DNA from: an uncultured Candidatus Saccharibacteria bacterium
GTDB lineage: Bacteria > Patescibacteriota > Doudnabacteria > UBA920
NCBI GenBank assembly: GCA_964384035.1
Contig: CAYLIB010000001.1
Coordinates: 48,532-112,531 of the forward strand
Reading direction: 5' to 3'
DNA length: 64,000 bases
Position 1 is the first letter of the stretch, and every line of letters starts with the position of its first letter. Positions 2,958-49,741 of the stretch are shown in pieces. A model generated the notes under the pieces. The model saw nothing but the letters and a program-made list of their open reading frames with translations, was not told where the DNA came from and made no database searches. Position numbers and translations under genes: made by a program.

Positions 2958-3190
2958 GAGCTCCCAAATTACTTGTTCACCTTATCCGTAATAAAAAGGA
3001 TTCGAAGAGTCTTTTTATTACATAGAGAAAAGCAATTTGGAATAGAGGAAGATTTAATAGAGAGTGCAGTAGCCAGTTTTGCATAAGGCGTGATAGTAAC
3101 TGGCTTTGCCAGTAACAGATCATGTCAAACTGGTTACAAAGCTCGGAGACAAATCTAACGTGCGTAGGAGGACCTAATGAGGGTGAAAAA
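2958..3190 (+). repeat. R1 structured repeat, copy A (slightly degenerate)
   Basis: 'gagctcccaaattacttg', then a hairpin with a GAAGA loop, then 'aaagcaatttgga', then an AGTT/AACT hairpin. Same order as copies at 17641 and 25191. Confidence 0.6.
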
Positions 3191-3233
3191 ATTTCTTCCT
3201 CCGAACACCAATGAACAAATCTCCAAACAAAGA

Positions 3234-3671
3234 CTAATATCTCACCCGTAACCTTGGTGACAACCCTAAGCTCAAAAACCTAAAACAACTATCTTTCTCA
3301 AAAAACAAAACCTCCCCTACCATCTCCCCTTCCAACAAGAGCATCTTCTCATTCAAAACTTCCATTGAACCATTCAACAAAAATATTCCGTTCTTCTTCT
3401 TGGTTTTAATCTCAGAAAACCTATACCACAAAAAACTACTAGACTTCCTATTCTCAATCACAAAATTTACGAACTCTTGTTTTCCCAGTTTACTATATTC
3501 TGTTAATCCAACATTCCCAAATCCAACATCTAAAAAATCTGCAATTTCATCTGAGTTCCCAAAATTTAATGCATTAACAAATTTTTCTAACCATTTCCTC
3601 AAACTGAACCTTTCTTCGGTTGTTAAGGTATAGTCAAACGTGAACTTGAAATCTAAATTTATATCTTTCAT
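3234..3671 (-). CDS. hypothetical protein
   Basis: 145-aa ORF. No recognisable motif. Confidence 0.35.
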   Translation of the reverse strand: MKDINLDFKFTFDYTLTTEERFSLRKWLEKFVNALNFGNSDEIADFLDVGFGNVGLTEYSKLGKQEFVNFVIENRKSSSFLWYRFSEIKTKKKNGIFLLNGSMEVLNEKMLLLEGEMVGEVLFFEKDSCFRFLSLGLSPRLRVRY

Positions 3672-15115: not shown

Positions 15116-15189
15116 TGGAGCGGCTAACGGGAATCGAACCCGTGTCCCTTCCTTGGCAAGGAAGAGTTCTACCATTGAACCATAGCCGC
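15116..15189 (-). tRNA. tRNA-Gly(GCC)
   Basis: Minus-strand fold. Acceptor GCGGCTA/TAGCCGC, anticodon loop TTGCCAA, T-arm ACGGGTTCGATTCCCGT, CCA encoded. Confidence 0.8.
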
Positions 15190-15216
15190 ACAATCTAAAA
15201 CTTATTTTACTACATC

Positions 15217-15353
15217 ATTCACGAGCGAAGCAATGTGAATGCGCCAACCAAAAGTAGCTCGCTACTTTTGAAAGGGACAACAAGGTAAACGAAGTGTAGT
15301 CTTTATGGAGCGAAAGCGTAATAAAGACGTAACGCAGTGAGCCTTGGTTGGCC
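15217..15353 (+). repeat. R2 tRNA-cluster spacer repeat, unit 1
   Basis: ATTCAC-gagcgaagcaat-GTGAAT hairpin, then a second hairpin (caaaagtagc/gctacttttg), then the core 'gaaagggacaacaagg..aacgaagtgtagtctttatggagcgaaagcgtaataaagacgtaacg.agtgagccttggttggcc'. Confidence 0.7.
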
Positions 15354-15358
15354 TGTGG

Positions 15359-15433
15359 TGGTGCCTCGGCTCAGAATCGAACTGAGTACGCAAGCCTCTT
15401 CAGGGCTTCGCTCTACCAATGAGCTACCGAGGC
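15359..15433 (-). tRNA. tRNA-Phe(GAA)
   Basis: Acceptor GCCTCGG/CCGAGGC, anticodon loop CTGAAGA, CCA encoded. Confidence 0.8.
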
Positions 15434-15473
15434 GCTTCTATATTCACGAGCGCAGCAATGTGAACCATTTATC

Positions 15474-15549
15474 TGGTGGACGCTACAGGACTCGAACCTG
15501 TGACATCTTCGGTGTAAACGAAGCGCTCTACCAACTGAGCTAAGCGTCC
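15474..15549 (-). tRNA. tRNA-Val(UAC)
   Basis: Acceptor GGACGCT/AGCGTCC, anticodon loop TTTACAC, CCA encoded. A truncated R2 hairpin at 15442-15472 sits just 3' of it. Confidence 0.8.
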
Positions 15550-15575
15550 ATACATATATTATAACTGAGACTATG

Positions 15576-15716
15576 ATTCACGAGCGCAGCAATGTGAATG
15601 TTTTTTGGGTCCCCGGCCACTCGTGGCTGGGGAGAGGGACAACAAGGTGAACGTAGTGTAAGGTTTATGAAGCGTAAGCGCAATAAAGACGTAACGTAGT
15701 GAAGAAAACTAGACCT
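15576..15716 (+). repeat. R2 spacer repeat, unit 2 (divergent)
   Basis: Same ATTCAC...GTGAAT hairpin. The second hairpin is replaced by ccccggccactcgtggctgggg. The core 'gagagggacaacaaggtgaacgtagtgta...aataaagacgtaacgtagtga' is retained. Confidence 0.65.
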
Positions 15717-15718
15717 TT

Positions 15719-15855
15719 ATTCACGAGCGAAGCAATGTGAATGCGCTAACCAAATGTAACTGGTTACATTTGAAAGGGACAACAAGGAGAACGAAGTGTA
15801 GTCTTTATGGAGCGAAAGCGTAATAAAGACGTAACGTAGTGAGCCTTGATTGGCC
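15719..15855 (+). repeat. R2 spacer repeat, unit 3
   Basis: About 90% identical to unit 1. Its second hairpin (caaatgtaac/gttacatttg) has compensatory changes relative to unit 1. Confidence 0.7.
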
Positions 15856-15857
15856 CG

Positions 15858-15942
15858 TGGTGCCCGAGGAGGGACTCGAACCCTCAAGCCTTACGGCATA
15901 CGCACCTCAAGCGTACGCGTATACCAATTCCGCCACCCGGGC
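15858..15942 (-). tRNA. tRNA-Leu(GAG), type II
   Basis: Acceptor GCCCGGG/CTCGGGC, anticodon loop TTGAGGT, long variable arm, CCA encoded. Confidence 0.75.
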
Positions 15943-17290: not shown

Positions 17291-17441
17291 TTAATTTCCT
17301 CCCGAAAAATTATGTTAAAGACTATAATAATAGATAACTAACGAATACTAATAAAATTATTTCTATATGTAAAGTGGAAAACCCCCACCGTTGATTTTTA
17401 CCCAAACTTAAAGTAAAATTGAGTAACGAAATCTCCCCTAA

Positions 17442-17545
17442 GTCGACTCATAAGAGTCGCATCCCCTAGCAGCAACTGCTGCGAGACAGGGGAGGCTCCA
17501 TAAGGGCTTTGCCCGTTGGAGGGGACGACGCTAGTCCCTATAGTA
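17442..17545 (+). repeat. 5' module of three hairpins immediately upstream of tRNA-Cys; homologous to 25062-25143
   Basis: gcagcaactgctgc, gggctttgccc and gggacgacgctagtccc correspond to gcggcaaagccgc, ggctctgcc and ggggcgacgcaagcccc at 25062-25143. The changes are compensatory. Both copies end '...cttagta(g)'. Confidence 0.6.
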
Positions 17546-17620
17546 GGTGCGTTGGCGAAGTGGTAACGCTGCGGTCTGCAAAACCGCCATGCGTGGGTTC
17601 GAATCCCACACGCACCTCCA
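17546..17620 (+). tRNA. tRNA-Cys(GCA)
   Basis: Acceptor GGTGCGT/ACGCACC, anticodon loop CTGCAAA, discriminator U73, CCA encoded. Confidence 0.8.
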
Positions 17621-17640
17621 TGAGACCCCTGAGATTCTCA

Positions 17641-17805
17641 GGGCTCCCAAATTACTTGCTTACCTATGAGTTTGTTTGAAAAAACCCGAAGAGGGATTTT
17701 TCAAAAAACAAAGAAAGAAGCAATTTGGGACAAGGAGAACTTGACGGAGAGTGCAGCTGTTAGTTCTGCACCGAACTGACAGCGGAGCTCGTAGACAAGT
17801 TGGAC
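17641..17805 (+). repeat. R1 structured repeat, copy B, between tRNA-Cys and tRNA-Leu
   Basis: 'gggctcccaaattacttg', a GAAGA-loop hairpin (gaaaaaaccc/gggatttttc), 'aaagaagcaatttggga' pairing back to the 5' end, 'ggagagtgcag', an AGTT/AACT hairpin, then 'cggagctcg...ggac'. Confidence 0.65.
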
Positions 17806-17807
17806 GC

Positions 17808-17894
17808 GCCCAGGTGGCGGAACTGGTATACGCTACGGACTTAAAATCCGTCGCCCGCAAGGGATTGAGGGTTCGATTCCCTCCCTGGGCACCA
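17808..17894 (+). tRNA. tRNA-Leu(UAA), type II
   Basis: Acceptor GCCCAGG/CCTGGGC, anticodon loop CTTAAAA, long variable arm, T-arm GAGGGTTCGATTCCCTC, CCA encoded. Confidence 0.8.
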
Positions 17895-18283
17895 CTAAAA
17901 ACACGTTGATAAAGTTAGCGTGTTTTTTAGTTAGTACATTTTCAAAACAAGGGAATCGAACCTTCGCGTTAGCGAAAACTTTAGGGAGTGAACCCATGCT
18001 CTGCTGGGTGAACACATCTGGGCTGGTTCACCAGATCCAGATTTAATAGCCAACCCTCCCTGGGCACCACAAAAAACATGCTAATTAAGTTAGCGTGTTT
18101 TTTTGTTTAAATAAGAATAGGCAAATTGGGGAATCGAACCTGAGCGAAGCGAAATCTTTAGGGAGTTTGAATCCAGCTTTGCTGGTTCAAACGTTCGGCG
18201 CAAGCCTGCGAAGTCGCCGATATATAGCCATCCCTCCCTGGGCACCACAAAAAACACGTTCTATATATGAACGTGTTTTTTAG
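17895..18283 (+). repeat. tandem array of two extra copies of the tRNA-Leu 3' end, each followed by a terminator hairpin and a ~160-nt paralogous spacer
   Basis: 'ccctccctgggcacca' occurs at 17879-17894 inside the tRNA and again at 18054-18069 and 18232-18247. Terminator hairpins at 17897-17927, 18071-18105 and 18249-18281 differ in their loops. The spacers begin 'gggaatcgaacc', an inverted T-arm. Confidence 0.65.
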
Positions 18284-22592: not shown

Positions 22593-25061
22593 ATGGCAAA
22601 CAAAGAAATCGAAAAAACCGACGAATTTAATATCGGTACAGTCAAACCAAGAGATATTCAAACAGAAATGCAAGAATCCTACTTGGACTATGCAATGAGT
22701 GTTATCGTTAACCGCGCTCTTCCAGACATTAGAGATGGTCTAAAACCAGTACATAGACGTATATTTTATGCCATGCACGAATTAGGACTTAGACATAACG
22801 CTAAATTCCGTAAATCAGCCGCTGTTGTTGGTGAAGTGCTCGGTAAATACCACCCTCACGGTGACCAAGCAGTATACCAATCCATGGTCCACATGGCCCA
22901 AGACTTCGCTATGCGATATCCTCTCATAGACGGCCAAGGAAACTTTGGCTCTATGGATGGCGACGAAGCCGCTGCCATGCGTTACACGGAAGCCAGAATG
23001 GATTCACTCGCAGAAGAACTTCTTACAGATCTAGACAAAGAAACCGTTGAATGGCGAGATAACTACGACGCAACAAGGAAAGAGCCTTCTGTGCTCCCAG
23101 CAAAGCTTCCAAACCTTTTACTAAATGGAACTCTTGGCATCGCCGTTGGTATGGCCACAGACATACCCCCACATAACATAAGCGAAGTTATAGACGGCAT
23201 CACAATGCTTATAGAAGACCCAGAGGTAACCGTTGAAGATCTCACTACAGTAGTTAAAGGTCCAGATTTTCCTACCGGAGGTACAATCTACGATATCGCA
23301 AGCATAAGAAACGCATACGCTACAGGAAAAGGAAGCATAGTAATGCGAGGTAAAACCGAAATTGTAGAAACCAAAAGTGGCATGTTCCAAATTATCATCA
23401 ACGAAATTCCTTATCGTGTGAACAAAGCCACAATGCTCGAGAGAATTGCCGACCTGGTTCGTGACAAAAAAATTGAAGGTATAAAAGATGTACGTGATGA
23501 ATCCGACAAAGACGGCGTTAGGGTCGTAATCGACTTAAAAAAAGAAAGTTTACCAAACAAAATACTCAATCAGTTATTCTCTTACACCCAGCTCCAAGAA
23601 ACCTTTCACATGAACATGCTGGCGCTTATAGACGGACTAGAACCAAGGGTTCTAAACCTCAAAAGCATTCTGGAAGAATACATAAAACACAGACAAGTAG
23701 TTGTAAGAAGAAGAACGGAGTTCGATCTCAAAAAAGCAAAAGAACGAGCACACATTTTAGAGGGTTTAACTATTGCGCTAGACCACATAGACGAAGTCAT
23801 AAACACCATAAGAAAGAGCGCAACAAAAGAAGAGGCCCACGCTAACTTAATGAAAAAGTTTAAGTTAAGCACTCTTCAAGCTCAAGCTATCCTAGATATG
23901 AGACTGCAAACACTCGCAGGTCTCGAAAGAAAGAAAATAGACGATGAGTTAAAAGAGAAAAGAAAACTTATCGCAGAACTCGAAGATATACTTAGCAAAC
24001 CAAAGCGTATTCTCGCTATTATAAAAACCGAAATTGCTGAACTCAAAGAAAAATATGGCGACGAGAGACGTACTCAAATAGTTAAGTCCCCTGTTGGCAC
24101 ATTCTCTGTAGAAGACCTTATTCCAGAAAACGAAAGTCTAATATCTTTCACTAAGAGTGGGTACATAAAACGTCTAGCTCCAGAAACCTACAAAGCCCAA
24201 GTTAGAGGAGGCAAAGGTGTCATAGGTACCGGACTAAAAGACGAAGACGTTGTTGAGAAGTTAATTTCCGCAAATACCCACGACGAAATCCTCTTCTTCA
24301 CCAACAAAGGGAGAGTATTCCTAACTAAAGTTTATGAACTACCAGAAGGAAGCAGAACTAGTAAAGGACAAGCTCTGGTTAACTTCCTAGAAATGGGTAC
24401 AGGCGAAACCGCTACAGCAATTCTGACCTTAAGCAAAAACGACTCAGTAAAATTCCTCGTAATGGCCACTAAGGGCGGGGTTATAAAAAAGGTTGCAAGA
24501 GAAGAATTCGCTAAAGTTAGAAGATCTGGACTTATCGCCATAAATCTAAAAGACGGAGATGAATTAAAATGGGTAGAAGGCAGCAGTGGAACAGACGAGA
24601 TTATCCTAGTATCAGAAAACGGAATGGCAATTCGTTTCAACGAGAAAGACGTAAGAGCAATGGGTAGGGTATCCACCGGCGTAGGAGGTATGAGACTTAA
24701 AAAAGGTGACTGCTTAATTTCAATGGATGTTATTGCCAAAACAGCAGACCAAAAAAATCTTGAAGTTTTGGTAATTACAGAAAAAGGTCTCGGCAAAAAG
24801 AGTCCAATCTCCGACTACAAGACCCAAAAAAGAGCCGGCGGTGGAGTAAAGACCCTAAAAATTACTCCAAAGACAGGTAAAGCCGTTGCAATGAATATCG
24901 TTAACAACAAAGATGAAAACGACCTCGTAATCATTTCCAAGCAAGGCCAAACCCTAAGAACACCCCTAAACTCCATCTCCACCCTAGGCCGAGCCACCCA
25001 AGGCGTAAGAGTAATGAGATTAGACGATGGAGACTCAGTGGCTAGCGTAACGGTCATTTAA
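22593..25061 (+). CDS. gyrA: DNA gyrase subunit A
   Basis: Sequence motifs '[11 protein letters not shown]', '[11 protein letters not shown]' and 'DGQGNFGS' plus a C-terminal beta-pinwheel. 822 aa. gyrB is not adjacent. Confidence 0.95.
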
Positions 25062-25191
25062 TAGCGGCAAAGCCGCGAGAAGGGAGGCTCGAATCTGGCT
25101 CTGCCAGTTCGAGGGGCGACGCAAGCCCCCTTAGTAGCAAGTCATGAGATTAGACGATGGCGATAGCGTAGCAAGCGTTACTGTCATTTAG
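25062..25191 (+). repeat. 5' module (homolog of 17442-17545) followed by a second, synonymously recoded copy of the last 15 gyrA codons
   Basis: 25144-25191 'atgagattagacgatggcgatagcgtagcaagcgttactgtcatttag' encodes [15 protein letters not shown]. This is identical in peptide to gyrA 25014-25061. Nine of the 16 codons (including the stop) are synonymously changed. Confidence 0.7.
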
Positions 25192-25380
25192 GGGTCCTAA
25201 ATTACTTGCTTACATATTAGTTTTAGAACAAAGCGCGAAGAGCGCTTTTTTCTAAAACATAGAAAGAAGCAATTTGGGAAGAGGAGAACTTTATGGAGAC
25301 TGCAGTAATTAGTTTTATATCAAACTAATTACGGAGGTCGAAATAAAGTGGGACGAGTAAGTGTGACTGTTATCTAAAAC
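25191..25380 (+). repeat. R1 structured repeat, copy C
   Basis: 'ggggtcctaaattacttg', a GAAG-loop hairpin (agcgc/gcgct), 'aaagaagcaatttggga', 'ggagactgcag', an AGTTT/AAACT hairpin (gtaattagttt/aaactaattac), then 'cggaggtcg...ggac'. Confidence 0.65.
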
Positions 25381-25414
25381 CCTAACCTTAATTAAATATA
25401 AAAATAAGCGACTC

Positions 25415-25783
25415 CTAAACGGGGTCGCTTTCGTTTTTTACCAGTTCAAGAATTCTCCTCTCAATTGTTATAAGATTAACGTTTAAAGGAAAACAAAATT
25501 GAGGAATTTCGGGATATTTCATTTGAGATTCACGCCAACTCTTAAGTGATATAGTAACACCAAAAGATTTCTCATGCTTATCGGTCCAAATCGTAAAATC
25601 TTTACCCTCACCATCGGCAACCGAATGGGGCCTGTGTCTCTTGTATTTGGTTATATACCCTTTCACCTTAAGTTCTTCTAATAATTTCTCGACCTTAGAC
25701 TCCAAATCTCTACCGAATTCGGAATATCTTTTAGATTTTCTTTCACGATAAGCCTGAAAATCTCGTTTATTCTTCCAACCCAT
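25415..25783 (-). CDS. hypothetical protein
   Basis: 122-aa basic ORF. Confidence 0.35.
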   Translation of the reverse strand: MGWKNKRDFQAYRERKSKRYSEFGRDLESKVEKLLEELKVKGYITKYKRHRPHSVADGEGKDFTIWTDKHEKSFGVTISLKSWRESQMKYPEIPQFCFPLNVNLITIERRILELVKNESDPV

Positions 25784-25910
25784 ATTCCCTCCTTTACCCC
25801 CCTATTTTAGATAAAATAACCCCACTTATCCACTCTTTGCAAAAACATTTAGCCTTTGCTATCTTTGCTTTTGGTACAATCCATATATTGTCCAAAAAAG
25901 GAGACGACAA

Positions 25911-26813
25911 ATGAAAAAGAAGGAAAGACTAAGCACATTAAGTTGGACTGAAGGTCAGAGGCTTTTACTCGAATGTGGTATTAATCCTCATCTGTTGAAT
26001 CCTGACTTTCTTTTGCGCTACCGTATACAAACGGAAGAATCAGATAGCATCTATGACGCCAAAACAACAATTGAAGTCGCCAAAGAGTTCAATACATATC
26101 TGAAAATTAATGGTTTTTCCACCCTAGACGAGACCGAAACAAAAGAACTCTATGTGGGCCTTTTGCTTTCCGATATCGGCAAAACCGGTCCGGAGTTTCA
26201 TGATGGAATGAAAGATGGAGAAAAAGTTATGCAAATAAGGGATTATTTAAAAGTTTATTCCATCAAAAATATTCCAAACTACGATTCGCTTTCGCTACAG
26301 GATTGCATTAGATCTTACTTTACTGATCCCGAAGAACTAATCTCTAGATTCACTGCATATGGCGAAGACCCAAACGAAACCATGAGATTCTTTACAAACC
26401 AACACGCACACCGAAGCTATAAAATTGCGTGCAATAGCGGAATTCCGGAAGATACTATTCCAGCCATAGCCTTACACCATATATTTGAGGATCAAAACCC
26501 AGGAGATCTAGTAGCTGAAGATGGCCATTTTACACGAAGCTGCGGTTGTAACACTGAATTTCACCGACCCGAGCTTCTGGTTGTAATATTGGATAAGCTA
26601 AACGCTGTTCAAACCAGACTAACCCCTGGTGAGAAAGCCCCAAGCTGGCAAGAAGCCGCTCTCTTAGTTGAGTTTCAAATGGAAGAAAGAATCGAAAAAC
26701 TAACTCACCCTGAACTCAAAAAACTTCTAAAATCCATGTGGTACGAGGTCACACAAACACTTCATAGAATCGCGGCCTTCAAATCTCCCAGAGCCTTCAG
26801 TACGAAAGCATAA
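25911..26813 (+). CDS. hypothetical protein, HD-domain-like with a degenerate metal-binding motif
   Basis: 'YVGLLLSDIGKTG' resembles the HD motif 'LLHDIGK' with His replaced by Ser. Downstream 'HAHRSY' and 'IALHHIFED' follow. Confidence 0.4.
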   Translation: MKKKERLSTLSWTEGQRLLLECGINPHLLNPDFLLRYRIQTEESDSIYDAKTTIEVAKEFNTYLKINGFSTLDETETKELYVGLLLSDIGKTGPEFHDGMKDGEKVMQIRDYLKVYSIKNIPNYDSLSLQDCIRSYFTDPEELISRFTAYGEDPNETMRFFTNQHAHRSYKIACNSGIPEDTIPAIALHHIFEDQNPGDLVAEDGHFTRSCGCNTEFHRPELLVVILDKLNAVQTRLTPGEKAPSWQEAALLVEFQMEERIEKLTHPELKKLLKSMWYEVTQTLHRIAAFKSPRAFSTKA

Positions 26814-26916
26814 AAACCGAGCAACAAAGTTGCTCATTTTATTTACCTTCTTGACTTTTATTCAAAAATTCAGTAAAATGCACGATTCGACTTAAAATAA
26901 TTTCTTTGGGGGGAAC

Positions 26917-28248
26917 ATGACAGGAACAAATCTGAACTCGCTTCTCAGCGAGTTTAAAAGACTAGCAGGAAACAACTTCCAACTTTTTACAAACCGATAT
27001 TTCCAAGCGAGGTCGGGAGGAGAATTCGTTCTCCCTTACGAAGCCATTCTTGAACACTTTGGCCTGAACCCCAAACTAGTTTCTGGCCAAACCTACATAA
27101 TCATATGCGATGCTTTCCGTGACTTAGACGACGAGAAGACTATCATTCTCATGAAAGCACTAATTGAATGCGAAGCCGAGCTCGCTGTCGTGGTCACAAA
27201 TCTAAACAGCGCGCTCGACCGGGCGTGCGGAGTTAAAGGATTACTAAGACTACTGGATCTGGGTTTTGTACCAGTAGGAGTAGGTACTGACGGCTCCAAC
27301 GAAGCGGTACCTTTCCATTTCGAAAGGACAGTACCTTTTGCAGTGCCCGCATACCAAGTAAACCCAGACGGTCAAGGCCTAATAATTAACACACTCACTT
27401 CCGCTAAGCCAAAAAGTGTAAGTGTATTACTAATCTCCTCACTTCGTGATATGGACATCATATTAGAAGAAAACAACTCCCTCTGCCGCGATCGGATAAA
27501 CCGAATTACCTTAATGGCGGGGGTAAAAATCGCAAATGGTAAACCAGAGTTGCTAAATGGCTTACTTCAAGCAGACATAAAGACTAACGGCGTAGGTGGT
27601 GCATCAAACTGCAATTTTGATACAGCTGCTAGCACAAGACTGTATCGGAACGCTCAAAAGCTCGAAATTCCTACTACAACTCTCACAAGAGTAACCGCGG
27701 GTGAAGTTAAGTTACCGTTTAGTATCTTCGATATTTGGGCTACTACAGGCCACCCAGCCGCCTCACGCCTCAAAGACGGTCAATCCCTTAGTTTCAATAA
27801 CTTACGCCTGGCTTGCCTTGAAGGCGAAGGCGGATCGCACCGAGTAGCCCTTGAACTCGCACTAGACCGAGACATAAACTGGTTCATCTATAAGGCATTT
27901 TTCAGAAACGCTCCAAAAGAAATACAGGAGCAAATTCTGAACCTGCCGTTACATGAATCTGTCTGGCCCATAGCCGCCGACTACGGCGAGCTTATGCCCT
28001 ACGACCCACTGGCACTACTCGCAAGCATAGAAGGCAACTCGCTGTTTAACTATCACTCCACAGTGGTAGGCGGAGCTGTTCACAAGGTGGTAGGTATAGA
28101 CGCCCAAAACACCGGCGCCCTAGACCCACTTTCCTTAAGAATGCTTCTGTTCATAGCCACAACAGAAGTACTCATAAGAACATCCAACCACGCCAAACGG
28201 GAGTTCCTGACCATCAAACGCGAACGCCTAGAAGCAAAAACTACCTAA
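26917..28248 (+). CDS. hypothetical protein (443 aa) with anomalously high GC
   Basis: Uninterrupted ORF. Sampled 60-nt blocks run 58-62% GC against about 35-40% in flanking genes. 'ICDAFRDLDDEKT' weakly resembles an aspartate-cluster motif of nucleoside hydrolases. Confidence 0.45.
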   Translation: MTGTNLNSLLSEFKRLAGNNFQLFTNRYFQARSGGEFVLPYEAILEHFGLNPKLVSGQTYIIICDAFRDLDDEKTIILMKALIECEAELAVVVTNLNSALDRACGVKGLLRLLDLGFVPVGVGTDGSNEAVPFHFERTVPFAVPAYQVNPDGQGLIINTLTSAKPKSVSVLLISSLRDMDIILEENNSLCRDRINRITLMAGVKIANGKPELLNGLLQADIKTNGVGGASNCNFDTAASTRLYRNAQKLEIPTTTLTRVTAGEVKLPFSIFDIWATTGHPAASRLKDGQSLSFNNLRLACLEGEGGSHRVALELALDRDINWFIYKAFFRNAPKEIQEQILNLPLHESVWPIAADYGELMPYDPLALLASIEGNSLFNYHSTVVGGAVHKVVGIDAQNTGALDPLSLRMLLFIATTEVLIRTSNHAKREFLTIKRERLEAKTT

Positions 28249-28309
28249 CTCCAAGACCCGAAGCGGTCTTTTTTATTTCAAAAAGACACCTTTTTGGGTG
28301 TCTTTTTAT

Positions 28310-28445
28310 ATTCACGAACCAAGCAATGTGAATCTATAACGGGGCCCCCGGGCACTCGTGACTGGGGAGAGGGACAACACGGGGCCACCAAATAACTCGA
28401 CCACACATTGTTTAAAAAAGATTCGAAGAGTCTTTTTTAACATAG
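28310..28445 (+). repeat. partial R2 unit (ATTCAC...GTGAAT hairpin + 'ggggagagggacaaca') followed by a degenerate R1 5' part with GAAGA-loop hairpin
   Basis: 'attcacgaaccaagcaatgtgaat...ccccgggcactcgtgactggggagagggacaacac', then 'ccaccaaataactcg...aaaaaagattcgaagagtctttttt'. Two terminator hairpins lie at 28254-28311. Confidence 0.5.
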
Positions 28446-28588
28446 CGGTGAGATATTTGGTATCAGGTTAATCCCTCACCGGATTCACTCAGGGGAGGGT
28501 GCTAATCTCGGGAAAAGCGGGAGCAAGGCGAACATGAGTTTGGACGGGATTACTTCCCGTACAGACTCGCGTGAACCTTGCTCACGCT

Positions 28589-42105: not shown

Positions 42106-42486
42106 ATGTCACCTAAATCCTCTATATTAATAACATCTTTTTTTGCACTTTTAGCCTTCGCCACTATAGAGAATCAGATCCTAGCTTTTGTAGGGGAAAA
42201 CACTCCAAACACCCCAGAAGTAGCCGGTGCTAGTATTGGTGCAATTGTTGAACCTACCCCCTTAAACACCGGTTGGGAGGAACTCAGAAAAGAACAAGAA
42301 AAGCTAAAAACTGAAAAAGAAAAAATAGAAGCTAGTAAAAGTTCTTTTACCAACTTCTTTGAACCCACAGAACGAAGTATTCGCTATCTATATATATTCC
42401 TATTCGTCTTCTTCTGCCTAGTTGTTATCAATCTCTTGCTCGACTTATACATCCTAAAATCCCAAAAGCGCAAAACTCATGCGTAA
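42106..42486 (+). CDS. hypothetical secreted/membrane protein with coiled-coil and C-terminal TM
   Basis: Signal peptide, 'ELRKEQEKLKTEKEKIEASK', C-terminal helix YLYIFLFVFFCLVVINLLL. Confidence 0.4.
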   Translation: MSPKSSILITSFFALLAFATIENQILAFVGENTPNTPEVAGASIGAIVEPTPLNTGWEELRKEQEKLKTEKEKIEASKSSFTNFFEPTERSIRYLYIFLFVFFCLVVINLLLDLYILKSQKRKTHA

Positions 42487-44014
42487 ATTTACAAATACTC
42501 TATTAGCCTTATTGTTAGTTCTAAGTAATTTATTTTTTCAACCAACTTTCACAACCCACAGCGCCACTCTTTCTCAGACCAGAGACACACTAATCGATCC
42601 GCGTCCCTCACAAGCGGTTGATCATTCTATAAACTTTACTACTGTAAACCTTATTCCTGTTTCAGGAAAAATAACACTTGAGTGGAAAGCCGGCAGCTTC
42701 AACATCCCCGGTACTCTAAGTTACCAGGATATAGATTTCAAAATAAACGGCACTGACCAATCCCTTGGTGCAACTCCAGGTACCGGTTTAGGATCAAATA
42801 TAGGAGTAAATATAATAAGCGGTACTAGCGGAAACATTACTTTCACCCTTAATGATACCAACAATATAGCTGGTGGAAGCACAATAACAATTCTTATAGG
42901 AAAAAATACCAATTACCAAACCACAGGCACAGAACAAATTACCAACCCCGTTGTAAATGGCTCATACACATACACTATTACTACAAAAAATGCTGTCAGC
43001 ACAACGATAGATTCACAAACGGGCGCAGTAAGTATTAACCCTACAGTTTCTGTAACAGGTAAAGTAGTACTCGGAATAGTTGCGACCCCAGACATTACAC
43101 CAAACGGAGGATCATTTGTAGATTATGTAGATGTAAATATTACCGATACCACCCCAGGAAGTACAATATATTTCACAACCGACGGTTCTACACCCACTAC
43201 TTCCAGTAATCTATATACCACACCCTTTACTCTATATTCCAACACAACAGTTAAAGCCTTCGCTACAGCACCTAGCTACGACGACAGTAGTGTCGCGACA
43301 GCAGTATTTAGTGTGACCCCTAGTGTACCCCCTGTAATCGGTTACGGACCAGAAAACCCAACACCGATTATTCACACCAACCAAAACGGGTTAGCTAATA
43401 TAAACCAAAAAGCAGTGGATATTATCCACACTTGCCCTAACAGTGTAGAAGTAATCCTCAAAATTCCTAGCAACTTTTACCCAGACCCACTTTCATTAAA
43501 CTTCTACTGTCTCCCCTGGAACACTTTACCCGAAACAGTTAGAAAGGCCGGTTCACTTAGCACACCGCCTGTTGCTGACACCGTAATTCTCATCACCGCC
43601 GAAGACAACAAAGGAAAAATCGTAGAATATTTACAAAATCCATTGACATTAAATATTACTTATACATCGGGTCATATTCAAAGCTTCATTTCAAACTCTC
43701 TTTATCTCAAAACCTATTTTTCAAATGAAAAAAATTGGTCAGATATCTCAGGTTTCTCCTCAAATCAAGAAAAAACTTTCTATACCGCGCAAATTAAACA
43801 CCTAAGCTACTTCGGAGTCTTTGGTCAAACACAAAAATTAGACTGCAAAACAGTAAAAGCAGATTTAAATTGTGACGGGAGAGTAAATTTAGTCGATCTA
43901 AGCATACTGCTTTACAATTGGGATATACCAAAGAATATAAAAGCAGATTTAAATAACGATACACGAGTAAATTTAGTAGATTTCAGTATTTTACTCTTCT
44001 ATTGGACAAACTGA
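42479..44014 (+). CDS. secreted protein with chitobiase/Fn3-like beta domain and C-terminal type-I dockerin (two Ca-binding repeats)
   Basis: Signal peptide. 'GGSFVDYVDVNITDTTPGSTIYFTTDGSTPTTSSNLYTTPF' is CHB_HEX_C-like. The dockerin repeats are 'DLNCDGRVNLVDLSILLYNW' and 'DLNNDTRVNLVDFSILLFYW'. Confidence 0.6.
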   Translation: MRKFTNTLLALLLVLSNLFFQPTFTTHSATLSQTRDTLIDPRPSQAVDHSINFTTVNLIPVSGKITLEWKAGSFNIPGTLSYQDIDFKINGTDQSLGATPGTGLGSNIGVNIISGTSGNITFTLNDTNNIAGGSTITILIGKNTNYQTTGTEQITNPVVNGSYTYTITTKNAVSTTIDSQTGAVSINPTVSVTGKVVLGIVATPDITPNGGSFVDYVDVNITDTTPGSTIYFTTDGSTPTTSSNLYTTPFTLYSNTTVKAFATAPSYDDSSVATAVFSVTPSVPPVIGYGPENPTPIIHTNQNGLANINQKAVDIIHTCPNSVEVILKIPSNFYPDPLSLNFYCLPWNTLPETVRKAGSLSTPPVADTVILITAEDNKGKIVEYLQNPLTLNITYTSGHIQSFISNSLYLKTYFSNEKNWSDISGFSSNQEKTFYTAQIKHLSYFGVFGQTQKLDCKTVKADLNCDGRVNLVDLSILLYNWDIPKNIKADLNNDTRVNLVDFSILLFYWTN

Positions 44015-44024
44015 TACAAAACAA

Positions 44025-44972
44025 ATGAAAAGCTCAATTATAAAAATATTCACTATTAGTTTCCTTTTAGGTTGTTATTTATTCATTGCAAAAGGGGCAC
44101 AAGCTGCGATCCTTCAATACGAAATTCCTAAAAACACCGTACGAGTAGGTGACTCGGTTACTATGAAAATAATACTTAATACAGAAGGTGAAAGTATAAA
44201 TACAGGATCAATAACGTCAATTATTCCAGAGAGTTTAGTTATACAAAATATATCCACAGCAAAATCCATCTTCAAATATTGGGTAAACAATCCAGACCAT
44301 CCATCCTCAAACATTATCAGTTTTACTGGTGGCTTACCCAACCCAGGATTCAACGGTACAAACGGTATAATAGGAGAAATCACTTTAAAACCCACCAAAG
44401 CTGGTAAATTCTCACTATATGCAGAGAGAGGTTCGCAAATCCTAGTAAACGACGGCTTTGGTACAAGTGCAAATGTGCAAATTCTCCAAAATACCCTGCT
44501 AGTTCTCGACCCTGGTAAAAACTACTCCCCCTTACCTTCAACCAAAGCAATAGACAACACCCCTCCTCACGACCTTATGCTAATTATTGGGAATAGCCAA
44601 TCAGAATTTGACGGTAAATATTTTGCTAGCTTCCGAGCAGAAGATGATGAATCAGGAATAGACCATTACGAAATAAGCGAAAAAATTAAAAACCAGAATT
44701 TAACTAACAAGGACCCCAACCCAAATGACAAGTCGCTAATATGGCGCACCGCAACAAGCCCATATATATTGGAAAACCAGGATAACAACACCTATGTTTT
44801 CCTAAAAGCCATAGATAAAGCAGGTAATACTTCTATTGTTTGGAAAATGCATGAAATTAAAAAAACCCCAAAGTTACCTTGGTTAATAATAATTATTCTT
44901 CTTGCACTCTTATTCATCACATATAAAGTAGGTCCTATATGGGTAAATAAAAAACTTAAAAAAAATTCATAA
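44025..44972 (+). CDS. membrane-anchored protein with a cohesin-like beta-sandwich domain (tentative)
   Basis: Signal peptide, a beta-rich N-domain (…GIIGEITLKPTKAGKFSLYAE…) and a C-terminal TM with basic tail (LPWLIIIILLALLFITYK…KKLKKNS). It is adjacent to the dockerin gene. Confidence 0.35.
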   Translation: MKSSIIKIFTISFLLGCYLFIAKGAQAAILQYEIPKNTVRVGDSVTMKIILNTEGESINTGSITSIIPESLVIQNISTAKSIFKYWVNNPDHPSSNIISFTGGLPNPGFNGTNGIIGEITLKPTKAGKFSLYAERGSQILVNDGFGTSANVQILQNTLLVLDPGKNYSPLPSTKAIDNTPPHDLMLIIGNSQSEFDGKYFASFRAEDDESGIDHYEISEKIKNQNLTNKDPNPNDKSLIWRTATSPYILENQDNNTYVFLKAIDKAGNTSIVWKMHEIKKTPKLPWLIIIILLALLFITYKVGPIWVNKKLKKNS

Positions 44973-45031
44973 ATAGTAAATAATGTGTTATAATTTTTTA
45001 AGAATTTCCTTACAATAGAAATAAAAATAAT

Positions 45032-46156
45032 ATGTTTCAAAAGTTAAAAAGCAAACAAATAATTAAAGTTTCCAAAATTGTTGTAGCAGCACTTGTCCTT
45101 GGTATATTTGGTCTCCAACCCGCACCCGTAAACGCTGCTTCACTAACAACTGTAAAAGATACCCTTACCAGAATCGAACAAGCCCAAACCGCAGACCATA
45201 CAATAACATTTACACTCCCAGGTGGAGCCTCAAGCTTCGTAGCTGGCGATAAAATGTCCATTGACTTCCCAGCAAACTTCGTAACCTCAACGGGCTGGGC
45301 AACCTCAGATTTCACCTTTAACGACGGTACTTCAAGAACCATAACCACAGTAGGCACCAACTCTACTCCTACCTGTACGGCTGGTACTAATAATGTTTCT
45401 GTAGAAATTACAACAGCAAGCGACCTATTTGTAATTACCGCCTGTTCTACCTTCACAGCAAACTCATCAGCCAACATTACATTCACCATTCAAGGTACTG
45501 GCGCTAACGGAACCCTCACGAACCCTTCTTCTCCTGAGACTTCCGTAGTGGCAATAGTAGGTGATGATAAAGGAAACGGGTTCGGTTCAGACGACGACAC
45601 CGCTTCCCTAGCTATCCCAATCATCGCAGACGATACAGTTACAATTACAGCTACCGTGGACCCAACTATTACCTTCTCAATATCAGATACAGCTATTTCA
45701 TTTGGAACCCTGTCTTCGGGAGCTGCGCGGTACGCTACTGGAGACGGAACCAGTACATCTACTGACCCCTCTGGTGGTGCTCACAACCTACAAATCTCTA
45801 CCAATGCCACCAGCGGTTACATCGTTACTTACAAAGGTGCAACACTAACCAGCGGAGCTAACACTATCGATGTTCCAGGTACATTCATAAACAACGACGC
45901 CAACGGTACTCCAGGACAAGAAGAATTCGCTCTTTCTGTAAACAGACAAACCGGTACCGGTACGGTTGCCGCCAACTACCAATACACCGACCCAGACTGG
46001 GACTTCGACGCCAACACTACCACTACCATTTACACCCAAACCGCAGCAACCAACACTGAAACTCTAGAAATTCACTACCTCGCTAATATAGCTGGCGCTA
46101 CTCAAGCTGGCACCTACACCACAGACGTTACTTACATAGCTACTGGAACGTTCTAA
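45032..46156 (+). CDS. secreted beta-rich surface protein, paralog 1
   Basis: Signal peptide with AxA site (PVNA/AS). T/S/G/N-rich. C-terminus '...GTYTTDVTYIATGTF'. The last 565 nt are identical to 47946-48510. Confidence 0.55.
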   Translation: MFQKLKSKQIIKVSKIVVAALVLGIFGLQPAPVNAASLTTVKDTLTRIEQAQTADHTITFTLPGGASSFVAGDKMSIDFPANFVTSTGWATSDFTFNDGTSRTITTVGTNSTPTCTAGTNNVSVEITTASDLFVITACSTFTANSSANITFTIQGTGANGTLTNPSSPETSVVAIVGDDKGNGFGSDDDTASLAIPIIADDTVTITATVDPTITFSISDTAISFGTLSSGAARYATGDGTSTSTDPSGGAHNLQISTNATSGYIVTYKGATLTSGANTIDVPGTFINNDANGTPGQEEFALSVNRQTGTGTVAANYQYTDPDWDFDANTTTTIYTQTAATNTETLEIHYLANIAGATQAGTYTTDVTYIATGTF

Positions 46157-46164
46157 ATACATTC

Positions 46165-46190
46165 AAAACCGCCCATAAGGGCGGTTTTAT
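46165..46190 (+). terminator. rho-independent terminator
   Basis: aaaaccgcccataagggcggttttatt. Confidence 0.55.
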
Positions 46191-46233
46191 TATTCCTCAT
46201 GTTATAATTCCCTTAGAATATTTTACTTAACCA

Positions 46234-47295
46234 ATGCCTAGCTCTAAATTCTTCGTTATTCGTATATTCTCTCTATTCGTTATTCTCTATTCGTTACTCT
46301 TCATTCCACGCGAAGCTAGCGCCCTTACCATATCTCCTCCCAGATTAGAGACCTCGGCAGACCCAGGTCAAACAATAGAACAAGAAGTAAAAATCATCAA
46401 TGAAGAAAGATCCTCACGAACACTCTATATTGTTCCTCAAAACTTTGAAGCCAAAGACGAAAGCGGAGAACCAAATTACGTCGAAGGCACAGAAAACCTA
46501 GCCGGTTGGATAAAAGTAGCAAAATCAGTAAATCTCGGACCAGGTGAAGAAAAATTTGTAAAATTTTCTATTTCGGTTCCACCCACTGCTGAACCTGGTG
46601 GATATTTTACAGCTCTATTCTTCCAAAGTGAACCCCCTAGCTTTGAACAAGGTGCTGGTATTGGTATAGGTAGCCAGTTAGGAAGTTTAATTCTTTTAAA
46701 AGTTAATGGTGCTATAGGAGAGCAAGCGGGTATACTCGAATTTGCTACTAAAAACAAAGATCGCACTTTCTTAAATCTACCTATAGAATTCTACTACCGT
46801 TTCCAAAACACAGGAGACACGTGGGTTAAACCTTTAGGTGAAGTCTTTATAACAAACACATTCGGAAAAAGAGTAAAACTCCTTACAGCGAACAGGCAAA
46901 AAGGAAATGTGCTACCCAAAAGCATTCGCAAATTCGAAACTGCATGGTTAAATAGCGGTGGAAATATAAAGGAAGACCCAAAAGGTGAAATTGAATACCC
47001 AAAACTAGAAGATTTCTGGGCAAATGTAAAATATCAATATAGCAATTTCGCTTTCGGACTCTACACTGCCAAACTCCATTTAGCTTACGGCACAAATCCT
47101 GTGCAGGTAGGAGAAACAACTTTCAAATTTATCGTATTTCCTTGGCAGCTCACATTAGTAAGTACCATTCTCGCCATAATTATCTTAATTATTCTGAGAA
47201 TACTTATTAAAAAATACAATCAAAGTATTATTAGAAAAGCCCAAAATCAAATTCAAAGTAAAGACAACCCTACTTCCAAACGAGGTAAAAAATAA
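46234..47295 (+). CDS. CscA/DUF916-DUF3324-like cell-surface protein with C-terminal TM anchor
   Basis: Signal peptide, 'ALTISPPRLETSADPGQTIEQEVKIIN', C-terminal TM with K/R tail (WQLTLVSTILAIIILIILRILIKKYN). Confidence 0.45.
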   Translation: MPSSKFFVIRIFSLFVILYSLLFIPREASALTISPPRLETSADPGQTIEQEVKIINEERSSRTLYIVPQNFEAKDESGEPNYVEGTENLAGWIKVAKSVNLGPGEEKFVKFSISVPPTAEPGGYFTALFFQSEPPSFEQGAGIGIGSQLGSLILLKVNGAIGEQAGILEFATKNKDRTFLNLPIEFYYRFQNTGDTWVKPLGEVFITNTFGKRVKLLTANRQKGNVLPKSIRKFETAWLNSGGNIKEDPKGEIEYPKLEDFWANVKYQYSNFAFGLYTAKLHLAYGTNPVQVGETTFKFIVFPWQLTLVSTILAIIILIILRILIKKYNQSIIRKAQNQIQSKDNPTSKRGKK

Positions 47296-47390
47296 AATAT
47301 AAAAAACACCAAATAGTTCTTTGGTGTTTTTTAAAAATTAAAAAATAATTTTATGTTATACTTTTTCTATAAAACAACTTTATAAATTCC

Positions 47391-48509
47391 ATGTTAAAGC
47401 TTCTAAACAAAAATCAAAAAATAACAAAGTTAGTTATCACTGCATTAATCCTCAGCGTGTTTGGTCTCCAACCTTCACCCGTAAACGCTGCTTCACTAAC
47501 AACTGTAAAAGACACCCTTACCAGAATCGAACAAGCCCAAACCGCAGACCATACAGTACAATGGACATTACCCGGCGGCGCATCTAGTTTCGTTGCTGGA
47601 GATAAGGCAAGAGTAGATTTCCCGGCAAACTTTGTTACTAGTACAGAATCGGGTTGGGTAGCCGGAGACTTCACGTACAACGATGGTACCTCAAGAACTA
47701 TTGTAGCAGTGGGAGCATCACCGTCATGTTCTGCAGGTGCCAACAATATTACTGTCCAAATAGACTCTGCTAATGACCAATTTATTATCACAGCCTGCGC
47801 TTCCTTTACCGCTAACTCCTCAGCTAATGTTTCATTTACTATAGACGGAACCACAACAGACGGAACCCTTACAAATCCTTCTTCCCCAGAAACATCCGTG
47901 GTAGCTATCGTCGGTGACGATCAGGGCGACGGCTTCGGAAGCAATGACGACACCGCTTCCCTAGCTATCCCAATCATCGCAGACGATACAGTTACAATTA
48001 CAGCTACCGTGGACCCAACTATTACCTTCTCAATATCAGATACAGCTATTTCATTTGGAACCCTGTCTTCGGGAGCTGCGCGGTACGCTACTGGAGACGG
48101 AACCAGTACATCTACTGACCCCTCTGGTGGTGCTCACAACCTACAAATCTCTACCAATGCCACCAGCGGTTACATCGTTACTTACAAAGGTGCAACACTA
48201 ACCAGCGGAGCTAACACTATCGATGTTCCAGGTACATTCATAAACAACGACGCCAACGGTACTCCAGGACAAGAAGAATTCGCTCTTTCTGTAAACAGAC
48301 AAACCGGTACCGGTACGGTTGCCGCCAACTACCAATACACCGACCCAGACTGGGACTTCGACGCCAACACTACCACTACCATTTACACCCAAACCGCAGC
48401 AACCAACACTGAAACTCTAGAAATTCACTACCTCGCTAATATAGCTGGCGCTACTCAAGCTGGCACCTACACCACAGACGTTACTTACATAGCTACTGGA
48501 ACGTTCTAA
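47391..48509 (+). CDS. secreted beta-rich surface protein, paralog 2
   Basis: N-terminal half is about 60% identical to paralog 1. The C-terminal 188 aa are identical. Confidence 0.55.
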   Translation: MLKLLNKNQKITKLVITALILSVFGLQPSPVNAASLTTVKDTLTRIEQAQTADHTVQWTLPGGASSFVAGDKARVDFPANFVTSTESGWVAGDFTYNDGTSRTIVAVGASPSCSAGANNITVQIDSANDQFIITACASFTANSSANVSFTIDGTTTDGTLTNPSSPETSVVAIVGDDQGDGFGSNDDTASLAIPIIADDTVTITATVDPTITFSISDTAISFGTLSSGAARYATGDGTSTSTDPSGGAHNLQISTNATSGYIVTYKGATLTSGANTIDVPGTFINNDANGTPGQEEFALSVNRQTGTGTVAANYQYTDPDWDFDANTTTTIYTQTAATNTETLEIHYLANIAGATQAGTYTTDVTYIATGTF

Positions 48510-48578
48510 AAAAACTAAAAGAGCTTTTGCTTAATGCAAAAGCTCTTTTGTTTTATTTCTACGTGTTAAAATAATCTT

Positions 48579-49676: not shown

Positions 49677-49741
49677 AAAAATAACGCAATAAAAATCTCG
49701 GCACACCGAGATTTTTATTTTCATCATGTTAAAATGAATTC

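Follow-up and report, generated by a model that had tools for sequence, protein, structure and literature searches.

R1 is a structured RNA module of about 165 nt, not catalogued before, in a Doudnabacteria-like CPR bacterium whose GyrA has its best relatives in Candidatus Doudnabacteria. Four copies lie in the 64-kb window (the whole stretch of DNA analysed, 64,000 nucleotides), all on the plus strand. The explanation we favour, tentatively, is that R1 is a portable structured leader/spacer module, one that would be transcribed with its neighbours and cut free by RNase P, and would have spread as DNA.

A covariance model made from copies B and C and applied with filters off to the window finds these copies alone on the plus strand, and they are the four that an earlier note on this DNA had placed at 2958, 17641, 25191 and about 28386. 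Copy B, at the home locus (17641-17807), scores 202 bits with a fold z of -5.8, and copy C, in the gyrA 3' UTR (25191-25356), scores 192 bits with a fold z of -8.4. Copy A (2958-3161) scores 54-132 bits depending on the model and is also supported by its fold, and the degenerate, R1-like copy D (28382-28547) scores 24-30 bits. Weaker minus-strand matches in the same scan are the reverse complements of the hairpins of these four copies. Copy A is antisense, between two minus-strand genes with RNase HII upstream, and has an additional hairpin nested within its P5 loop. Copy D has retained domain 1 and had its domain 2 swapped out; it is joined to the 3' side of an R2-type module and faces a convergent minus-strand tRNA-Ile. 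A 25-nt part of copy D is nearly identical to P2 of copy A, and the orthologous site in L005 carries a different, shorter R1-like hairpin. Beyond the window, collection scans by exact pattern returned 116 genome, 14 metagenome and 4 viral loci; the pattern used for genomes fixed 19 bases and was too loose. By covariance model only L005, L066, L090 and L099 among these hold a real R1, and nearly all others are chance matches. The sample overall comes to about 10 loci in about 5 genomes. The claim that R1 always lies on the plus strand stands within the window and does not extend beyond it.

All R1 copies, each folded singly, share a two-domain fold (z -5.1 to -8.4; as good in 0 of 200 shuffles). 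Domain 1 is a long hairpin with a conserved base, P1 (CUCCCAAAUUACUUG / AAGCAAUUUGGGA), and a variable tip. After a purine-rich linker, GAGGAG, domain 2 forms a stack of P3, P4 and P5 in which symmetric 5'-GNA/5'-GNA loops interrupt the stems and the P5 hairpin is hypervariable, and the element closes with a fixed 3' tail, GACGA/C. Covariation was assessed in an alignment, fitted to the model, of 7 distinct sequences; the window supplied 3 of them and two other MAGs the remaining 4. In this alignment 95.6% of cells are paired and both sides have changed in 23 of the 50 pairs; none of 500 shuffles equalled the real alignment, and a slid register left 37-55% paired. RNAalifold, run on the same alignment, predicted the same architecture unaided with 27 of 55 pairs compensatory, and the 12 G-U cells favour plus as the folding strand. 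With 23-27 of 50-55 base pairs compensatory across 7 sequences, the description of R1 as a structured multi-copy element with compensatory change in several stems is borne out. The conserved GAAGA loop that went with this description holds only in part, as it is not kept in the homologues of the Doudnabacteria MAG SJ812. The two R1 copies of SJ812 are identical apart from the 27-nt P4/P5 hairpin, and ordinary drift does not explain a difference confined to that hairpin.

Each R1 copy carries 4-5 GGA/GGAG motifs, located in the linker, the loops and the tail. Left unpaired, these motifs might let the freed R1 bind a protein or the ribosome; another possible function is insulation or stabilisation of the transcript. 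The motifs, the stable fold and a presumed release from the tRNA precursor, like that of tRNA-linked small RNAs, would also suit a family of trans-acting small RNAs, acting as a protein sponge or binding the ribosome via GGA/GGAG, with paralogues that are gene duplicates using tRNAs for their 3' ends. We think this very unlikely, as sheared G-A pairs in a rod are a simpler reading of the loops, the presence of R1 varies among close relatives, and the promoter scan detected no plus-strand promoter for copy A.

A search of the whole window against Rfam 15 at gathering thresholds returned 10 tRNAs only, and at E<=10 positions 17400-17900 and 25040-25450 gave only tRNAs plus chance miRNA and leader matches. 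R1 is unmatched even at this level, in agreement with the statement that it resembles none of RNase P, tmRNA, SRP, 6S and group I/II introns. The suggestion of an intron relic finds no group I or group II signal in Rfam. Patescibacteria tRNA introns (PMC13011429) had prompted the idea of a group I relic, which was rejected for the absent intron signal and the small size of R1.

TnpB reRNAs, IscB ωRNAs (OMEGA) and IS110 bridge RNAs are, like R1, structured non-coding RNAs of about 150-200 nt that are associated with mobile DNA and place a variable segment beside a conserved scaffold. R1 could be a guide or scaffold RNA of this kind, its scaffold followed in reRNA-like fashion by a variable flank with the tRNA 5' end or the ATG in guide position, or else a ribozyme acting in cis, with a cut at its own 3' end that yields tRNA +1 or a leaderless AUG; its hypervariable P5 stem and constant 3' boundary would fit either. 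Unlike for the OMEGA and bridge RNAs, however, no associated protein gene was found for R1. A search of the flanks found no TnpB, IscB, RT or integrase and no other mobile-element enzyme in 27 neighbouring proteins (Pfam, NCBIfam and PHROGs; window, L066, L090 and L099), and precomputed Pfam tables hold no TnpB, IscB or IS110 gene near any of 10 related loci. There is no sequence or structure match to these RNAs, HEARO being negative and ribozyme hits absent in Rfam at E<=10. The variable part of R1 pairs internally as a stem, where a guide would be free and single-stranded, and in the 64-kb window the variable stems have no match of at least 12 nt elsewhere in the same locus, only chance 9-11-mers. 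RNase P already accounts for the cut in tRNA contexts. Both the guide-like identity proposed in the earlier note and the ribozyme are highly improbable.

The founding locus of R1 is the spacer between tRNA-Cys and tRNA-Leu(UAA). In the window a sigma-70-like promoter, TTGATT-17-TAAAAT (17391-17419, plus strand; consensus match only), heads a putative unit of 5' module, tRNA-Cys, R1 and tRNA-Leu. The tRNA calls confirm tRNA-Cys(GCA), with CCA encoded, at 17546-17620 on the plus strand, between the 5' module and R1 as had been claimed, and tRNA-Leu(UAA) at 17808-17894 on the same strand, its base +1 directly after copy B. The order tRNA-Cys, spacer, tRNA-Leu(UAA) is shared by the window, L140, L142, L146, L147 and L148. 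The spacers of L142 (3801-3941, 35.6 bits, same two-domain fold) and L147 (2313-2415, 47.8 bits) hold R1 homologues that end ..GCGACGC| or ..CGACGA| exactly at tRNA-Leu +1, and R1 in this spacer has been kept between lineages whose GyrA proteins are 77-79% identical. The same spacer has no R1 in L146 and L148 and no recognisable one in L140, so R1 is dispensable for tRNA maturation. In SJ812, R1 abuts tRNA-Val +1 (L090) and tRNA-Ser +1 (L099), which brings the loci where its 3' end abuts tRNA +1 to five (window B, L142, L147, L090 and L099); in L066 it abuts the ndk ATG. R1 thus lies inside a tRNA transcription unit and ends at tRNA +1, as a tRNA-operon spacer or leader would.

At this locus R1 would be transcribed from the operon promoter within the pre-tRNA, an RNase P cut at tRNA-Leu +1 would free its 3' side, and 3' processing of tRNA-Cys would free its 5' side. 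Among the identities that had been suggested, a processing element fits best, given the predicted promoter-to-terminator tRNA unit and a 3' end that falls at the RNase P site of the next tRNA at five loci. The whole R1 unit may then have been copied as DNA, with its ends unchanged, to sites directly before other tRNAs or the beginning of an ORF and shortly after the 3' end of the gene on the upstream side. Copied with unchanged ends to gene boundaries, R1 would be a portable leader/spacer module, selfish or semi-domesticated. It resembles RNase P-released spacers of stable-RNA operons and tRNA-matured sRNAs in its position between promoter and terminator of a tRNA operon, its 3' end at tRNA +1 and its discrete fold. 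Unlike RNase P-released spacers, R1 is multi-copy, also stands before an ORF and in a 3' UTR, is gained and lost between close relatives and has a hypervariable hairpin; its processing is predicted from sequence. Should R1 prove to be a functional leader, it would be a new RNA family bearing on tRNA and mRNA 5' ends in a setting of reduced RNA-processing machinery. The idea that domain 2 contains a promoter from which transcripts start at the R1 junction was rejected: only some copies have a -10-like TAAAGT, and the scan revealed no internal promoter there.

At copy C, the 3' end of gyrA is present three times on the plus strand. Tail copy 1 (25011-25061) encodes 16 residues in frame, tail copy 2 (25141-25191) encodes the same 16 residues and a stop, and a 5' module (25062-25140, plus strand; 106 bits and sequence) lies between them. 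Tail copy 3 (25357-25377) is the displaced ancestral end, identified from its sequence and from L005 and relatives, and the terminator scan places the original gyrA terminator after it (25406-25430, plus strand). Copy C is flanked by tail copies 2 and 3, with the terminator downstream. The recoded gyrA 3' end that had been reported here is therefore real, although the third tail, after R1, had been missed. Tail copies 1 and 2 differ at 11 nucleotides, all synonymous and on all four bases, and nearly all differences among the three copies are synonymous. Tail copy 3 reads gta agt gtg act gtt atc taa, and L005 has gca there, giving ASVTVI*; in relatives gyrA ends ...gca agc gtc act gtt att taa, with a terminator behind it. 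R1 is absent from the gyrA 3' ends of 7 relatives (L139-L142 and L146-L148), which are empty sites, as is the PPIase-ndk gap of only 23-26 nt in L151 and L152. Since these sites are empty in relatives, R1 at gyrA and at PPIase-ndk is lineage-specific.

As a portable leader/spacer module, R1 would have been inserted in the last gyrA codons, as would the unrelated 5' module, with the displaced tail retained downstream and a silent upstream duplicate preserving GyrA. Differences between the window and a 93%-identical relative follow a mosaic pattern, which points to frequent recombination with diverged alleles and so to a source for the synonymous-only tail differences. Purifying selection could not be read from the identity between the window and L005, as the region lies within a recently recombined tract of 97-98% identity. 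A DGR (TR/VR) reading of the gyrA repeats was rejected because the differences are not adenine-specific and no RT gene was found nearby.

The 5' module is a separate family, distinct from R1. At copy B (17436-17545, core 17466-17545, plus strand; pattern, covariance model and fold) it forms an inserted leader that separates the operon promoter from tRNA-Cys; in L142 and L140 tRNA-Cys directly follows a plain promoter. Its pattern has 2 matches in the window against 0 expected. The covarying hairpins ascribed to it fare less well than its presence at B and C, since covariation is thin with two independent copies. The family is found twice more after tRNA-Leu, where two tandem M3 units (17931-18247, plus strand) each consist of M3 followed by a repeat of the last 16-17 nt of tRNA-Leu (18054-18069 and 18231-18247), with a terminator-like hairpin after each. 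M3 is a relative of the 5' module, whose covariance model matches 18147-18219 with 28.5 bits (E 7e-5). A combined unit of 5' module, cargo and R1, along the lines of the layout in the earlier note, is not supported, given this siting 3' of tRNA-Leu and R1 standing without the 5' module at 8 of 10 loci. In most cases a member of the 5' module family is followed by a repeated 3' end of the gene before it.

An intact gene, an insert and a displaced 3' copy are also what elements that replace 3' ends leave behind (tRNA att sites, phage 21/e14 in icd, CIMEs), and the silent differences, the nested or tandem arrays and the targeting of tRNA and protein-gene 3' ends are shared as well. The modules could thus be miniature or decayed site-specific integrative elements, CIME-like, that supply replacement 3' ends, the repeats being attL and attR. 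Repeats of the target's 3' end flank R1-C and the 5' module at gyrA (51 nt and 21 nt) and M3a and M3b at tRNA-Leu (the 16-17-mer from the T arm, twice), and the tRNA-Cys of L146 has a displaced 3' half that starts right after the anticodon; the T arm and anticodon-adjacent positions are classic integrase sublocations in tRNA genes. Tail copies that differ only synonymously, as they do for phage 21/e14 in icd, are expected if each copy once served as the functional end. However, unlike these elements, the inserts are 80-165 nt and non-coding, sizes with no known precedent as integrating circles, and no integrase was found among the tested neighbours. Most R1 copies (A, B, L066, L090 and L099) have no flanking repeat, and the constant junction of R1 is the downstream gene start, not an att repeat, which makes an integrative origin quite unlikely.

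It is unlikely, if a shade less so, that R1 and the 5'-module/M3 family form an undescribed class of non-autonomous, strand-specific insertion modules, pasted at gene boundaries by an unknown enzyme or an RNA-templated process that duplicates the target. The repeats would then be staggered target duplications of 21 nt (R1) and of 51 and about 52 nt (two independent 5'-module/M3 events), landing in last codons or at a tRNA 3' end would regenerate an intact gene automatically, and the conserved fold would be a recognition or template structure.

Strand placement also bears on how the modules spread. The plus strand of the window carries 4 R1, 4 5'-module/M3 and 5 R2-type elements regardless of local gene orientation; copy A and all R2-type modules lie on it with neighbouring genes and tRNAs on the minus strand, and GC skew is negative across the entire window. 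Placement opposite to the neighbours, together with the lack of a promoter for copy A, points to a DNA-level, replication-linked strand rule and not to an RNA role. R1, 5' module/M3 and R2-type elements may accordingly be non-autonomous DNA elements (REP/BIME, PATE or MITE) whose single-stranded hairpins serve an enzyme acting in trans, such as a HUH/Y1 transposase, with the RNA fold a by-product. The families are modular and mosaic, with common sub-motifs such as R1 P3 plus its loop (CUUUAUGGAG..CGNAAUAAAG), which recurs within R2-type elements; hairpins sit within hairpin loops, as in copy A; unit ends are sharp and relatives have empty sites; and GNA loops and the CGAAG mini-hairpin are stable as DNA too.

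R1 is multi-copy, short, non-coding, hairpin-forming, modular and intergenic, and like REP/BIME (RAYT-associated), pneumococcal BOX/RUP, Correia/NEMIS and Rickettsia RPE repeats it combines stable hairpins and compensatory change with intergenic or co-transcribed siting and sub-modules common to families. Unlike them, it has neither terminal inverted repeats nor a fixed duplication. The two ends of R1, GRGNUCC... and ...GACGM, do not form an inverted repeat, no duplications flank copies A, B and D, the copies share no short duplication or flanking tetranucleotide, and no RAYT, Y1 or other transposase was found among the tested proteins in the window or near copies. Nor do those repeats have a strict junction with the next gene start or one tRNA spacer conserved across lineages; the abutment on tRNA +1 at five loci and the conserved Cys-Leu spacer fit function or selection better than random insertion. 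We hold a purely DNA-level element doubtful, though a reading to be weighed.

CPR/Patescibacteria genomes are about 1 Mb with very little spare DNA, and in this compact lineage several families of folded modules of 80-200 nt are packed around tRNA genes. If the modules are mobile DNA, gene-end duplication would allow harmless insertion into essential genes (gyrA and tRNAs), and a mobilising activity behind them would be implied. Either way, the R1 covariance model is well supported and usable for RNA family databases and CPR genome annotation. The 27 neighbouring proteins comprise housekeeping proteins, unknowns, a XopQ-like nucleoside hydrolase and purF.

R1, a folded repeat of about 165 nt with two domains, is a real and new structured RNA or repeat family of Doudnabacteria. 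A covariance model built from copies B and C and run over the whole window with filters off returned four members, all on the + strand: copy A (2958-3161), copy B (17641-17807), copy C (25191-25356) and, as a weak match, copy D (28382-28547). The other matches were only reverse complements of the same hairpins, and reading the sequence at each of the four sites bore out the layout described in the earlier note. The window has a high AT content, ten tRNA genes and a GC skew that stays negative over its full length; each copy folded singly gives the same two-domain shape, with z-scores of -5.1 to -8.4 against shuffled sequence. Domain 1 is a long hairpin with a variable tip and a conserved base in which CUCCCAAAUUACUUG pairs with AAGCAAUUUGGGA, leaving one bulged A. 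A GAGGAG linker joins it to domain 2, a P3-P4-P5 stack in which every 3x3 internal loop is 5'-GNA/5'-GNA, a potential site of sheared G-A pairs. The 3' terminus is a fixed tail, GACGA/C, and the unit has constant boundaries, GRGNUCC... on the 5' side and ...GACGM on the 3' side.

Pattern scans of public genomes yielded chance matches for the most part, and four true R1 homologues were singled out by the covariance model, two in the MAG CAYSUI01 (~93% identical to the window) and two in the Candidatus Doudnabacteria MAG SJ812. In the alignment of seven sequences, which was fitted to the covariance model and comes from about five genomes, 95.6% of cells are paired and 23 of 50 pairs show changes on both sides. 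None of 500 shuffles reached these values and slid registers were 37-55% paired, upholding the earlier claim of covarying stems. RNAalifold independently predicted the same architecture, with 27 of 55 pairs compensatory, and the 12 G-U cells indicate that the + strand is the folding strand. Variability clusters in the P2 tip and P5; the two SJ812 copies differ only in the 27-nt P4/P5 hairpin and are otherwise identical, a pattern that resembles an exchange of modules more than drift.

Rfam 15 has no family that R1 matches, either under its gathering thresholds or, for the two main loci, with the cut-off relaxed to E<=10, and on that basis RNase P, tmRNA, SRP, 6S, group I/II introns, HEARO and catalogued ribozymes are ruled out. 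A guide-RNA or ωRNA identity had also been proposed. Pfam, NCBIfam and PHROGs on 27 neighbouring proteins and Pfam tables of ten related loci turned up only housekeeping proteins and proteins of unknown function, and no TnpB, IscB, RT, integrase or transposase; the variable stems have no match in the rest of their own loci. The guide-RNA reading therefore fails, and that R1 is a guide RNA or ribozyme is barely credible.

Copy B is the founding locus, since relatives' gyrA neighbourhoods share its conserved pair, tRNA-Cys(GCA) followed by a spacer and tRNA-Leu(UAA), and two of them carry R1 in that spacer. In L142 it is diverged but recognisable (35.6 bits), keeps the two-domain fold and ends exactly at tRNA-Leu +1 (..GCGACGC); in L147 (47.8 bits) it also ends at tRNA-Leu +1 (..CGACGA). 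The spacer holds a different sequence with two hairpins in L140, another module type in L146 and 53 nt only in L148. R1-B is almost certainly transcribed, as the unit of 5' module, tRNA-Cys, R1 and tRNA-Leu has a sigma-70-like promoter (17391-17419) ahead of it, and by the standard pathway its 3' end would be made by RNase P. The best-supported account, which we hold tentatively, is that R1 is a portable leader/spacer module. It would be transcribed jointly with adjoining genes, cut free by RNase P where a tRNA comes next, and copied from site to site as DNA.

Elsewhere R1 is dispersed. In SJ812 its last base is -1 of tRNA-Val and, at the other copy, of tRNA-Ser. A B-like R1 fills the PPIase-ndk gap of CAYSUI01 and ends at the ndk ATG; as this gap is only 23-26 nt in two relatives, it represents an insertion or replacement. 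Copy D is joined to another module, at a site holding different sequence in the close relative L005 (a CAYSUI01 locus). Copy A sits between a pair of minus-strand genes and is antisense to them; here a search for a + strand promoter detected none; that R1 is a family of trans-acting small RNAs is highly improbable. A 25-codon ORF, MRVKKFLPPNTNEQISKQRLISHP (3178-3255), begins 17 nt past copy A, and its Shine-Dalgarno sequence, AGGAGG, is strong.

Copy C lies in the 3' UTR of gyrA (22593-25061; 74-79% protein identity to Candidatus Doudnabacteria), whereas in seven relatives the gene ends plainly and a terminator comes next. The recoded gyrA end of the earlier note is real, but in place of two copies of the last 16 codons there are three tail copies. 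Copy 1 (25011-25061) continues the gyrA reading frame and precedes the 5' module; copy 2 (25141-25191) has 11 nt differences from it, all synonymous, including a TCA/AGC serine switch, and precedes R1; copy 3 (25357-25377) reads ASVTVI* in L005, a C>T in the window making its first codon Val, and precedes the ancestral terminator. Copy 3 is the displaced original end, since the nearest insertion-free relative ends ...gca agc gtc act gtt att taa before its terminator. The 5' module and R1 are nested insertions, each with a silent tail replacement ahead of it. A DGR is excluded, as the changes are not specific to adenines. Between the window and L005 the baseline is about 1 mismatch in 100 nt, rising to 10-18 per 100 nt in tracts inside gyrA, and one ORF has 77% identity, a mosaic indicating that exchange with diverged alleles happens often; tail differences that are synonymous only could simply come from there. 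The tails could equally stem from a target duplicated when the module inserted, the functional copy later being replaced by another allele, or from import of module and gene end together from another lineage; attL/attR formation of the integrase type would account for them as well. That R1 copies are miniature integrative elements is quite improbable. Within 22593-28300, near-identical tracts lie beside diverged gyrA tracts (22593-23090 and 24500-24935), and the 77%-identity ORF (25911-26813) has unknown function.

The 5' module had been taken as part of R1. It is instead a separate family, because eight of ten R1 loci are without it, tRNA-Cys in relatives is directly preceded by a bare promoter, and its covariance model finds further members: apart from the two known copies, it recovers the orthologue in L005 and, as a fourth, a related sequence at 18147-18219 (28.5 bits). 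The latter falls in one of two tandem units 3' of tRNA-Leu, each consisting of M3 (the related module), an exact repeat of the last 16-17 nt of tRNA-Leu (18054-18069; 18231-18247) and then a hairpin resembling a terminator. Three of four family members thus have behind them a direct repeat of the 3' end of the gene upstream; it is 51 nt long at gyrA and, counting the 16-mer together with the terminator, ~52 nt at tRNA-Leu. L146 tRNA-Cys has an equal signature with yet another module. The 5'-module hairpins covary between copies B and C, weak evidence from two independent sequences. The tRNA-Leu(UAA) units (17895-18250) are ~177 nt each, their inner module containing GGGAATCGAACC, the reverse complement of a T-arm. 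In L146 (4439-4644), an intact tRNA-Cys and a ~65-nt hairpin module precede a duplicate of the tRNA 3' half from just past the anticodon, its T-loop split by a 23-nt insert with a mini-hairpin, CATCCCTCCGGGAGATG, also present in the ~65-nt module.

A further family, R2-type, occupies all the spacers between the minus-strand tRNA genes clustered at 15116-15942 (tRNA-Leu/Val/Phe/Gly) and forms the 5' part of copy D. Copies lie at 15217-15358, 15441-15464, 15570-15720, 15715-15860 and 28300-28386, and at 6658-6730 of L005. They fold better on the + strand, antisense to the cluster tRNAs, and share with R1 a P3/loop motif (CUUUAUGGAG..CGNAAUAAAG) and periodic GNA/GNA loops. The family combines a sub-motif of R1 domain 2 with a second hairpin that varies, and GNA/GNA 3x3 loops recur at regular intervals along its long hairpin. 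Every one of the window's 13 module copies has the + orientation, which favours an orientation rule at the DNA level and is the main evidence for a transposon-like alternative; that R1 is a REP/PATE-like single-stranded-DNA element is possible, if somewhat unlikely.

Selfish insertions in essential genes seem common in the clade, given inteins in GyrA and ribonucleotide reductase. By precomputed Pfam, these are in P0120 (a GyrA homologue of 1265 aa; intein with a LAGLIDADG domain) and in a relative's ribonucleotide reductase (L152, 1-45). In L146 (2120-2508), a GIY-YIG endonuclease ORF follows a truncated 5' part resembling tRNA-Val(CAC) and precedes a complete tRNA-Val(UAC); both tRNA sequences begin with the same 27 nt. 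Beside purF, an unknown 443-aa protein (26917-28248) weakly matches XopQ (nucleoside hydrolase fold), far under the family cut-off. At 42479-51891 and 52608-63047, a run of nine paralogous-looking proteins of ~315-511 aa, whose N-termini resemble signal peptides, and the 3479-aa ORF that comes after them are probably cell-surface proteins.
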